64,000 nucleotides of DNA, taken from NCBI RefSeq assembly GCF_013315695.1, contig NZ_CP054353.1. One strand, 5' to 3'. Source of the stretch: Escherichia coli. GTDB lineage: Bacteria > Pseudomonadota > Gammaproteobacteria > Enterobacterales > Enterobacteriaceae. The notes under the pieces were generated by a model that had not been told where the DNA came from, searched no databases, and saw nothing but the letters and a program-made list of their open reading frames with translations. Numbering within the stretch: the stretch's first letter is position 1; every line of letters begins with the position of its first letter. This document shows positions 1 to 1,162 of the stretch, one piece after another. Both the position numbers and the translations under genes were made by a program.

Positions 1-284
1 CGCAGGCACGCGAGCAGTACGGCGACGATCAGGTGAAAGTGTATAAATCCTCTTTCACCGCGATGTATACCGCCGTCACCACTCACCGCCAGCCGTGCCG
101 CATGAAACTGGTATGCGTTGGACCGGAAGAGAAGATTGTCGGAATTCACGGCATTGGTTTTGGTATGGACGAAATGTTGCAGGGCTTCGCGGTGGCACTG
201 AAGATGGGCGCAACCAAAAAAGACTTCGATAATACCGTCGCCATTCACCCGACGGCGGCAGAAGAGTTCGTGACCATGCGTTAA
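1..284 (+). CDS. gor: Glutathione reductase, C-terminal fragment (5' end lies outside the window)
   Basis: ORF 33..284 translation ...[47 protein letters not shown] matches the Gor C-terminus; reading frame is open back to position 1; stop TAA at 282-284. Confidence 0.85.
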
Positions 285-290
285 ATGTTA

Positions 291-321
291 AAGGGCTAAG
301 AGTAGTGTGCTCTTAGCCCTT
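291..321. terminator. Perfect 12-bp stem hairpin (aagggctaagag/ctcttagccctt) between convergent gor and dinQ; likely bidirectional terminator
   Basis: Inverted repeat read directly; lies 7 bp after the gor stop and 14 bp after the dinQ stop (minus strand). Confidence 0.55.
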
Positions 322-334
322 AGCTACGTTTCCG

Positions 335-421
335 CTACCAGTTCAGAAGCTGAAGCAGAAAGCGGATCAGTTCCAGCAGCGCAATTAACGCCCCAAGAAC
401 GATGATTGCTTTATCAATCAC
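335..421 (-). CDS. dinQ: DinQ small hydrophobic membrane toxin peptide (type I toxin), GTG start
   Basis: Minus-strand translation from GTG at 421: VIDKAIIVLGALIALLELIRFLLQLLNW*, a single transmembrane helix matching the DinQ peptide as I recall it; position between gor and agrA/agrB as in K-12. Too short to appear in the ORF track. Confidence 0.6.
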   Translation of the reverse strand: MIDKAIIVLGALIALLELIRFLLQLLNW

Positions 422-614
422 CCGTGTTCTCCATACGATGGAGTGAGAATGCATCCGCTTACTCATCCATTGCCTGTCACGGCGCATGCCCTATTGTTAG
501 ATAATGGCATTCTCACTCCGGCCAGAGCATCAGTTAACGGCACCACCCGTACCACTGATCAGGACTTTGAAAGCGTTTATGCGCATTGCCAGAGTGAAAA
601 TGCCTCAGAGCTAA

Positions 615-632
615 CTGGATAATCATACAGTA
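615..632 (-). promoter_or_regulatory. LexA (SOS) box-like site CTGG-N8-ACAG upstream of the dinQ transcript
   Basis: ctggataatcatacagta has CTGg-N8-ACAG spacing with one mismatch to the LexA consensus CTGT-N8-ACAG; dinQ is a known damage-inducible gene. Confidence 0.5.
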
Positions 633-695
633 TATTCAGGTTATAAAACCAGCATGTCCTTGCAATAGTTTCAGTATGGTATTAGCATTGATGCG

Positions 696-779
696 TTAGA
701 TGATGGCATTCTCACTCCAGCCAGAGCCACCAACTCAGGGCTGGAAAGTAAAAAACCGACGCAAAGTCGGTTTTTTTAC
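696..779 (+). ncRNA. agrA: agrA-like small RNA (antisense-type regulator of dinQ), approximate ends
   Basis: Repeat unit carrying the motif gatgatggcattctcactccagccagagc (also present at about 500-530 in the dinQ leader region) and ending in a rho-independent terminator (ccgacgcaaagtcgg + T7 at 756-777); putative -35 ttgcaa at 660-665. Confidence 0.5.
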
Positions 780-928
780 ATCCGGATTCGGACAAGGCTT
801 GGTACGGCAGCGACCCGATGAAAGTATATCAATCCTCTTTCACCACCATGTATAGCAAACTGTCCCTCCGCCAGCTGAAGAAATCGCTAATTCTTGCAAT
901 GTTAGTCACTGGCTAATAGTATTGAACC

Positions 929-1010
929 GTTAGATAAGAGCTCTCTCACTCCAGCCAGAGCCACCAACTCAGGCTGAAGAGTAAAAAACCGACGCAAAGT
1001 CGGTTTTTTT
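929..1010 (+). ncRNA. agrB: agrB-like small RNA (antisense repressor of dinQ), approximate ends
   Basis: Second copy of the repeat unit, 233 bp downstream of the first; ends in the same hairpin + T7 terminator (989-1010); putative -35 ttgcaa / -10 tagtat upstream; lies 153 bp before arsR. Confidence 0.55.
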
Positions 1011-1162
1011 ATGTCCTGATTCAGACCTCCTTTCAAATGAATACCCAACTCAAAATTCACACCTATTACCTTCCTCTGCACATACGAATTCGTTAAACCA
1101 TATATGTTTTTGACTTATCCGCTTCGAAGAGAGACACTAAGTGCAACAATCAGGAGCGCAAT

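Follow-up and report, generated by a model that had tools for sequence, protein, structure and literature searches.

A gor relic beside agrB and a predicted change of antitoxin at the Escherichia coli dinQ-agrAB locus

Positions 291-1010 of the window, the 64,000-nucleotide stretch of Escherichia coli DNA (contig NZ_CP054353.1) analyzed here, correspond to the gor–dinQ–agrA–agrB–arsR locus of E. coli, which is known as a type I toxin–antitoxin system induced by the SOS response. The reading favored here, with a probability of roughly 0.7, is that this dinQ-agrA-agrB locus owes its agrB gene to a trimmed second copy of the gor 3' end plus the toxin–antitoxin module, and that AgrA is the predicted antitoxin in this strain. 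Both propositions are drawn from comparisons of sequences. The locus and its repeated motif are already known, and the gor relic and the re-assignment of control between AgrA and AgrB are modest, testable additions; no mention of the gor-derived fragment, which is present in K-12 too, and no earlier mention of the re-assignment was found in the papers on dinQ-agrAB that were consulted. The relic would offer a concrete and datable picture of the birth of a second antitoxin, by duplication of a whole module and subsequent loss of the second toxin.

Layout of the locus and of the dinQ leader

The first 1165 positions of the window are 100% identical to the E. coli chromosome NZ_OZ547117.1, where the genes are annotated as gorA and dinQ, and are matched in 5422 of 5426 complete E. 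coli genomes. The gene order in K-12 is gor, dinQ (minus strand), agrA, agrB and arsR, and an alignment of the window with the K-12 locus reveals no rearrangement (Table 1). The hairpin at 291..321 acts as a bidirectional terminator for the convergent gor and dinQ genes and forms the left end of the dinQ-agr module; the corresponding hairpin has been named the dinQ terminator (PMC3567139), and it is kept, with compensating sequence, in modules of Serratia and Hafnia. At the opposite side, positions 794-801 ('aaggcttg') are similar to the module end in Serratia and in Escherichia sp. E1V33. The original prediction of a DinQ reading frame on the minus strand after the gor terminator agrees with this layout, as the hairpin lies 3' of the gor stop codon and the encoded peptide scores 53.9 bits on the NCBIfam model NF041472 (toxin_DinQ, cut-off 30), which identifies it as a small hydrophobic single-helix toxin of the DinQ family. 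The peptide equals K-12 DinQ plus a C-terminal W, the K-12 TGA stop codon reading TGG here. A simple promoter and terminator scan of the dinQ-agrAB region gave nothing useful, and the minus-strand Rfam matches to 'AgrB' and Spy779816 (E 0.15-0.9) were rejected as palindromic terminators only.

Table 1. Features of the gor–dinQ–agrA–agrB region in window coordinates.
Feature	Position	Strand	Remarks
gor (glutathione reductase) 3' end	1..284	+	ORF 33..284; stop codon 282-284; gorA in NZ_OZ547117.1 and K-12
gor segment	17-93	+	Source-equivalent of the pseudo-gor fragment
Perfect 12-bp hairpin	291-302/310-321	both	Inverted repeat I5, 100%; 3' of gor stop
dinQ toxin ORF	335-421	-	GTG 421-419, TAG 337-335; 28 aa
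dinQ Shine-Dalgarno GGAG	432-429	-	Mapped through gap-free K-12 alignment
Leader 'sequence 3'	about 452-438	-	Inverted copy of the motif core, GCAUUCUCACUCCA on the mRNA
Antisense target in dinQ 5'UTR	496..528	-	mRNA nt about 88-120; includes 'sequence 2'; 33-nt repeat copy 1
Leader 'sequence 1'	600-588	-	K-12 features from PMC3567139 / PMC5066626
dinQ transcription start	about 615	-	Placed by K-12 numbering
Predicted LexA operator aaCTGgataatcataCAGta	613-632	-	Read from sequence; CTG-N10-CAG core 615-630 identical to K-12
Predicted agrA promoter	TTGCAA 660-665, 17-nt spacer, TAGCAT 683-688	+	Read from sequence; identical to K-12
agrA sRNA	696-779	+	Rfam RF02891 (AgrB), 108.1 bits (gathering score 40); 5' 33 nt = repeat copy 2
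agrA unit right flank	780..801	+	780-793 homologous to agrB flank
pseudo-gor	802..875	+	Equivalent to gor 17-93, same orientation; no continuous reading frame left
Predicted agrB promoter	TTGCAA 894-899, 17-nt spacer, TAGTAT 917-922	+	Homologous to agrA promoter
agrB sRNA	930-1012	+	Rfam RF02891, 89.9 bits (gathering score 40); 5' 33 nt = repeat copy 3
agrB unit right flank	1013..1026	+	Homologous to 780-793; agrA/agrB homology stops here

A 33-nt motif occurs in three direct copies, at 496-528, 695-727 (94%) and 929-961 (85%), and its 18-nt core is found exactly three times in the 64 kb, while none is expected (100 shuffles). It is the published "AgrAB repeat", comprising the target in the dinQ 5'UTR and the 5' ends of the two sRNAs (PMC3567139, PMC5066626). 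This bears out the earlier observation of a motif recurring near 500-530, 700-730 and 930-960 with the last two copies inside the agrA and agrB units, where they constitute the 5' ends of the two RF02891 matches; by their position these matches are agrA and agrB. Both sRNAs are transcribed divergently from dinQ and are predicted to fold into a 5' tail, a stem-loop and a terminator, and agrA is known to be expressed in K-12 (PMC3567139). The two units, described as 'presumably tandemly duplicated' (PMC3567139), share a homologous stretch that begins at the -35 box, ends 14 nt beyond the terminator and includes a direct repeat (D3) of 89% between 739-793 and 972-1026, with a promoter spacer and a patch within the repeat that are far more diverged than the remainder. 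A resemblance of the agrB -10 region to the loop of the gor/dinQ terminator (GGCTAATAGTATTG vs GGCTAAGAGTAGTG) reached only z=1.5-2.2 and was treated as chance.

The four leader elements of Kristiansen et al. (2016, PMC5066626) are conserved in the window and allow the mutually exclusive pairings 1:2, 2:3 and 3:4. In this numbering, 'sequence 3' pairs with either the Shine-Dalgarno sequence or the antisense target, that is, it competes for the target; indeed, positions 439-452 are 100% complementary to both 706-719 and 507-519 (inverted repeats I3/I4). The predicted 1:2 and 2:3 duplexes amount to -33.1 and -25.6 kcal/mol in the window compared to -23.3 and -21.1 kcal/mol in K-12, as the window-type patch gives longer predicted intramolecular duplexes. 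In K-12 the DinQ peptide is toxic and an sRNA represses it (PMC3567139, PMC5066626), and identity of the sequences suggests that the steps established there would apply here too: dinQ would be repressed by LexA, its primary mRNA would be translationally inert until processing yields an active form, and the 5' ~31 nt of an Agr sRNA would pair with the leader at 497-528. Such pairing would release 'sequence 3', whereupon the Shine-Dalgarno sequence would be sequestered and the sRNA/mRNA duplex would be open to RNase III.

The gor fragment and the origin of agrB

Between the agrA and agrB units lies a remnant of the 3' end of gor. Positions 802-854 match gor 17-69 at 83% without gaps (direct repeat D4), with a local alignment score of 61 against 16.2 +/- 2.2 (z=20.5) that none of 1000 dinucleotide shuffles reached; the similarity noted in the original prediction, of 817-866 to gor 33-80, is the core of this match. 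In K-12 the alignment of this spacer with gor covers 77 nt and corresponds to gor 17-93 (z=14.9, 0/1000 shuffles), and in K-12 and other strains the homology thus extends past 854 to gor 93 ('CCGCCAGC', window 868-875). The fragment keeps the orientation and the order of its parent gene. The junction at which it begins, with gor ~17 adjoining the agr flank, is common to E. coli, E. whittamii, L008 (a GTDB representative) and E. albertii. E. albertii has a single agr, behind which two pieces of gor, 16-34 and 255-284, are fused, the second with the stop codon; neither alignment was reached in 1000 shuffles. This remnant implies that the additional gor copy once extended from ~17 through the end of the gene and was trimmed differently from one lineage to another. 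The pseudo-gor stop codon of E. albertii is followed by P1-like phage-plasmid DNA, with no second module, and the region downstream of gor itself differs right after the stop codon in every outgroup.

A scan of species-representative genomes with the agr core pattern gave matches in E. albertii, E. whittamii, Escherichia sp. E1V33, two further "E. coli" representatives, Hafnia paralvei and Serratia sp. H1w. The modules of the latter two consist of the terminator, a DinQ-like reading frame whose peptide passes the NCBIfam DinQ model, the leader and one agr, and they reside in unrelated contexts, in Hafnia with an SprT-like gene on one side and a tyrosine recombinase on the other, in Serratia between ABC-2 permease genes and a ybhL-like gene, with no gor-like sequence in or near them. 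The Hafnia patch is species-specific and common to target and sRNA, while the match of target and sRNA in Serratia is read from the alignment only. On plasmid pS34_2 an annotated dinQ is part of a promoter-less fused module remnant beside a recombinase fragment, and Escherichia sp. E1V33 carries one agr and lacks pseudo-gor, an arrangement which may be ancestral or due to secondary loss. The dql family and the dqlB-agrB module of IncX3 plasmids have been published earlier (PMC5066626; PMC12317039). Since dinQ modules with one agr and without gor exist in Hafnia and Serratia, the repeat shared by target and sRNA is an old feature of the dinQ/dql family and cannot be the product of a gor-linked duplication.

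Two layers may accordingly be distinguished in the locus. The older one is found throughout the dinQ/dql family: the 5' end of the sRNA is a direct DNA repeat of the toxin leader on the opposite strand, and the leader also holds two inverted copies of the same core. In the younger, Escherichia-specific layer, a second direct copy of about 785 bp, comprising gor from 17 onwards and the whole module, would have been placed to the right of the first and then shortened by deletions. In E. coli the deletion would have started at gor ~93, ended shortly before the agr promoter and removed the second terminator, dinQ, leader and LexA site, leaving pseudo-gor (802-875) and agrB, while E. albertii would have retained other pieces. 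The spacing of gor and pseudo-gor is 785 bp (D4) and that of agrA and agrB is 234 bp (D2), and the difference would correspond to about 551 bp lost by deletion. Between pseudo-gor and agrB no trace was detected of a second dinQ, of its terminator or of a LexA box, which is why a deletion step is invoked. A metagenome scan for a longer second copy yielded no intermediate, its 15-base pattern being too unspecific (120 loci fetched, 2/120 representing the locus). With these reservations, agrB only, and not agrA, plausibly stems from a duplication that included the gor 3' end, and pseudo-gor adds a size and a left boundary to the published tandem duplication of agrA and agrB.

The sequence of pseudo-gor is also compatible with a different source of the second copy. 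The consensus pseudo-gor differs from the Escherichia gor at 8 of 55 sites, seven of these being third codon positions, and displays codon states of its own (GAT, CCG, GTA, TCG, ATA). This divergence exceeds what a freely decaying tandem copy should show, and the third-position pattern may point to separate divergence of the two gor ends, each within a functional gene and in a different genome, although the count covers eight sites only. The gor 3' end and module of a related genome could then have entered by illegitimate (one-sided homologous) insertion, or by means of a small element carrying its own gor 3' end, and the two gor ends, like agrA and agrB, would represent alleles of separate lineages instead of sister copies. 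Such an origin would fit the strong divergence of the agrA/agrB patch and promoter spacer, the position of pseudo-gor, which abuts the apparent exact right end of the module ("aaggcttg") just as the gor stop codon abuts the left end, and the tyrosine-recombinase genes adjoining the modules of Hafnia and pS34_2. The region after the gor stop codon, moreover, differs in Salmonella and three Citrobacter species, and this variation suggests a recombination hotspot. However, when E. coli gor is compared with Salmonella or Citrobacter, its third-position divergence does not change abruptly at the junction (0.42 vs 0.42; 0.40 vs 0.36; lowest p=0.058). Next to the locus the window has neither an integrase nor an att-like core, arsR following agrB directly, and the Hafnia and Serratia modules are devoid of gor sequence. 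An intergenomic origin is rated as less likely than not, yet it is the best placed of the alternatives. That the resident gor 3' end is itself foreign was considered separately and rejected, there being no third-position break relative to Salmonella or any of the three Citrobacter species.

A second copy later trimmed by deletion, whether it came from tandem duplication within the genome or from insertion, is the preferred account for agrB. A broader version of it, in which both agr sRNAs were born by duplication of the gor 3' end and dinQ and a decayed dinQ copy persists at about 867-928, could draw on the position of the gor fragment, which immediately precedes agrB with the expected order and orientation, and on a short string ('agctgaag') common to the spacer and the dinQ ORF region. 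The degenerate, stop-containing dinQ-like stretch that had been described after the gor fragment is nevertheless unsupported: a comparison of 855-928 with the dinQ region 291-495 scored 18 against 14.8 +/- 2.2 (z=1.5), 110 of 1000 shuffles being as good, and the best local match falls outside the dinQ ORF. The string at 868-875 ('ccgccagc') continues the gor homology, not dinQ, and the agrB promoter, a homologue of the agrA promoter, takes up about half of 876-929. As dinQ and agr also occur together without gor in Hafnia and Serratia, and as a fused remnant on pS34_2, the proposal that the agr RNAs arose from the gor/dinQ segment is plausible for agrB and fails for agr as a class, and the broader version is very improbable. 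That the resemblance to gor is a chance or low-complexity match, as its shortness might suggest, can be set aside in view of the two shuffle tests (z=20.5 and 14.9, 0/1000 each) and its conserved position in at least four lineages of Escherichia.

Pairing of dinQ with AgrA and AgrB

The target in the dinQ leader contains a variable 9-nt patch at 503-511, which reads AATGGCATT in the window and AAGAACTCT in K-12, and which varies among lineages while always resembling one of the agr copies. The window target is complementary to AgrA at 29 of 31 positions (RNAduplex -55.0 kcal/mol) and to AgrB at 26 of 31 (-42.6 kcal/mol), whereas the K-12 target shows the reverse relation, with 25/31 and -39.6 kcal/mol for AgrA and 30/31 and -55.1 kcal/mol for AgrB. 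The predicted sRNA/dinQ duplex spans mRNA nt 67-120 (window 549-496), and the AgrB site on the K-12 dinQ mRNA is G88-A119 (PMC5066626). In K-12, AgrB alone binds and represses dinQ (PMC5066626). For such loci the database T1TAdb notes only that the sRNA with the more stable predicted interaction is picked. By this pattern of complementarity AgrA, not AgrB, is predicted to be the working antitoxin in the window strain, the reverse of K-12.

The distribution of patches among genomes is consistent with this prediction. Counted as exact 35-mers in 5426 complete E. coli genomes, the window type AATGGCATT, which matches agrA, is found in 1916 genomes and the K-12 type AAGAACTCT, which matches agrB, in 1677. 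A third type, GACGACTAT (418 genomes), matches agrA and is also present in E. albertii, E. whittamii, L008 and E69, while a fourth, GTGGGCTAT (809 genomes), belongs mostly to a promoter-less fusion. All five window-type genomes sampled carry the matching agrA, and agrB is absent in two of them.

It may be argued that AgrB is still the antitoxin here as in K-12, or that the two sRNAs are redundant and the patch differences are without functional effect. AgrB retains 26/31 complementarity with long contiguous 3' pairing, by which cross-repression may occur, an intact predicted promoter and terminator, a predicted duplex of -42.6 kcal/mol (or -50.2 kcal/mol against the full mRNA) and an Rfam score well over the threshold. 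However, the K-12 AgrA, with 25/31 and -39.6 kcal/mol, fails to bind or repress dinQ (PMC5066626), the window-type genomes JX2, MB52 and A2 have lost agrB while keeping dinQ and the matching agrA, and the target patch tracks one agr copy in Hafnia, in E. albertii and in every sampled E. coli haplotype. Continued control by AgrB, or redundancy of the two sRNAs, appears unlikely, with a chance of about one in four, and AgrA is retained as the predicted antitoxin.

The 9-nt patch would have been exchanged among the three 33-nt repeats since the duplication. The pattern in the outgroups suggests that the wiring of dinQ to AgrA is the older one and that the K-12 target acquired a short tract from agrB by conversion, the two having 24 identical nucleotides in common (GTTAGATAAGAACTCTCTCACTCC). 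On balance, and by a narrow preference, the locus may be viewed as one toxin with two antitoxins, in which short gene conversions among the 33-nt repeats re-assign the control of DinQ between AgrA and AgrB. The dinQ-AgrA pairing (E. albertii, E. whittamii and the 1916 and 418 genomes above) would then be ancestral and commonest, the dinQ-AgrB pairing of K-12 (1677 genomes) would be derived by an agrB-to-leader conversion, and the same repeats would drive recurrent deletions of 199 bp and 234 bp that silence or simplify the locus. Functional work has all been performed in K-12, whose antitoxin is AgrB and whose AgrA has been dismissed; for the window strain, and for roughly one third or more of the E. 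coli sequenced, the opposite assignment is predicted. A re-assignment of this kind would alter the reading of agrA and agrB knock-outs and of persistence and SOS phenotypes outside K-12, and would make dinQ-agr a natural system for the switching of antisense specificity by a 9-nt patch.

Comparison with known systems

The locus is orthologous to dinQ-agrA-agrB of K-12, situated between gor and arsR (Weel-Sneve et al. 2013, PMC3567139; Kristiansen et al. 2016, PMC5066626). The K-12 locus differs in its target patch, in the complementarity of AgrB (30/31) and of AgrA (25/31, and termed degenerate), and in a DinQ shorter by one residue. The dql modules, including dqlB-agrB of IncX3, follow the same plan of a terminator, a small hydrophobic toxin, a long leader with the target and a divergent agr-type sRNA; they differ in having a single sRNA, no gor fragment, other genomic or plasmid contexts and a specificity patch of their own. 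[quoted passage not shown] The sequences of the two systems are unrelated, however, IstR-1 blocks a ribosome standby site instead of causing sequestration of the Shine-Dalgarno sequence, and there is no duplicated antitoxin in tisB/istR-1.

Whole toxin–antisense modules are tandemly duplicated in ibs/sib, in the 'LDR' repeats of ldr/rdl and in zorO-orzO / zorP-orzP, and in these systems a few nucleotides decide which antisense RNA pairs with which toxin. Each copy there retains its toxin, whereas at the dinQ locus the second toxin is gone and one toxin has apparently been re-assigned between two sRNAs. The arrangement of gor and pseudo-gor in turn resembles that of icd and e14 (icdC), in which a functional gene is followed by an inserted segment and then by a displaced pseudo-copy of the gene's own 3' end. 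The dinQ locus differs from icd/e14 in that gor and pseudo-gor enclose neither an integrase nor a prophage; in place of an element body of the e14/icd type, the inserted segment of only about 520 bp holds dinQ and agrA alone.

Deletions between the direct repeats

Recombination of the repeat in the dinQ leader with the one in agrA has recurrently deleted 199 bp, with the loss of both promoters and the joining of dinQ to the body of an agr gene. The deletion is carried by E. coli FDAARGOS_1260 (locus L004), by genome matches H119-H128 (ST131 and others), by a metagenomic locus (L044) and by plasmid pS34_2 (L015), and the equivalent event in the dinQ-like module of this plasmid is independent. 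Among complete E. coli genomes the GTGGGCTAT allele of the dinQ target (809 genomes) is mostly explained by the 199-bp deletion, as seen in 11 of 12 sampled rows.

A second deletion, of 231-234 bp between agrA and agrB, leaves a single agr gene and eliminates pseudo-gor, the duplicated gor 3' fragment. The carriers are E. coli JX2, MB52, A2 and FDAARGOS_536 (L002, L019, L021 and L003, respectively), and in all four haplotypes the agrA-type 5' end that remains is the one matched by the dinQ target. Such a pattern is consistent with agrB being dispensable on haplotypes with an agrA-matching dinQ target.

Possible exchange among repeats, gor and lineages

Within the pseudo-gor of the window, positions 845-866 carry the TCC, ACC and ATG states of the real gor, while the pseudo-gor of other strains differs at these three, and a short gene conversion from gor into pseudo-gor may have taken place here. 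These gor-like states render the resemblance to gor more visible in the window strain (83%) than in K-12 (gapped, about 77%). Sequence exchange between the three repeats is further supported by the distal agr of E. whittamii (agrB, L013 12980-13014), where the GATGGCATT patch occurs with the 'CCGG' state that elsewhere characterizes the dinQ target. On a larger scale, gor-dinQ-agrA (1-795) shares 96.4% identity with Escherichia sp. E1V33 (L014) and no more than about 93.5% with most E. coli, whereas genes further along show 86-88% identity between the window and E1V33. This contrast in identity suggests that the locus has been transferred among Escherichia lineages via recombination.

Mobile neighbours, agr-like sequences and reading frames

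In E. albertii (L005 4117-4400), DNA with 95-96% identity to P1-like phage-plasmids of about 93 kb ('phage tail protein') meets the stop codon of pseudo-gor, with a 7-nt overlap, 'gcgttaa', at the joint. Recombinase genes lie beside agr in two unrelated dinQ-like modules, a hint that such modules travel together with site-specific recombination functions.

Recombinase, agr-like and antisense features, in the coordinates of each locus
Feature	Location	Strand	Context	Support
Tyrosine recombinase gene	Hafnia, L010 4483-5184		immediately right of agr	Pfam Phage_integrase, 58.5 bits
Tyrosine recombinase fragment	plasmid pS34_2, L015 1788-1901		immediately right of agr	annotation
agr-like sRNA sequence	plasmid pPCP06173_contig_2 (35-kb), L016 1501-1566		dinQ annotation absent alongside	own patch and terminator
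59-codon ORF	window 443-622	+	antisense to dinQ leader	RefSeq 'hypothetical protein' WP_001296816.1 in some genomes, e.g. L017 654-827

The agr-like sequence of pPCP06173_contig_2 may represent an unannotated dqlB-agrB module. A 424-bp contig labelled Acinetobacter haemolyticus (L006) shares 91-97% identity with the interval from agrA to arsR in E. coli, and contamination of that assembly with E. coli DNA is its most likely source.

The 59-codon ORF, which overlaps known RNA elements, is probably spurious. DinQ itself is extended in the window, where TGG replaces the K-12 stop codon TGA (335-340) and the next stop is TAG, giving a 28-aa peptide with an additional C-terminal tryptophan; all four other E. 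coli strains aligned (K-12, JX2, F536 and F1260) encode a DinQ of 27 aa.
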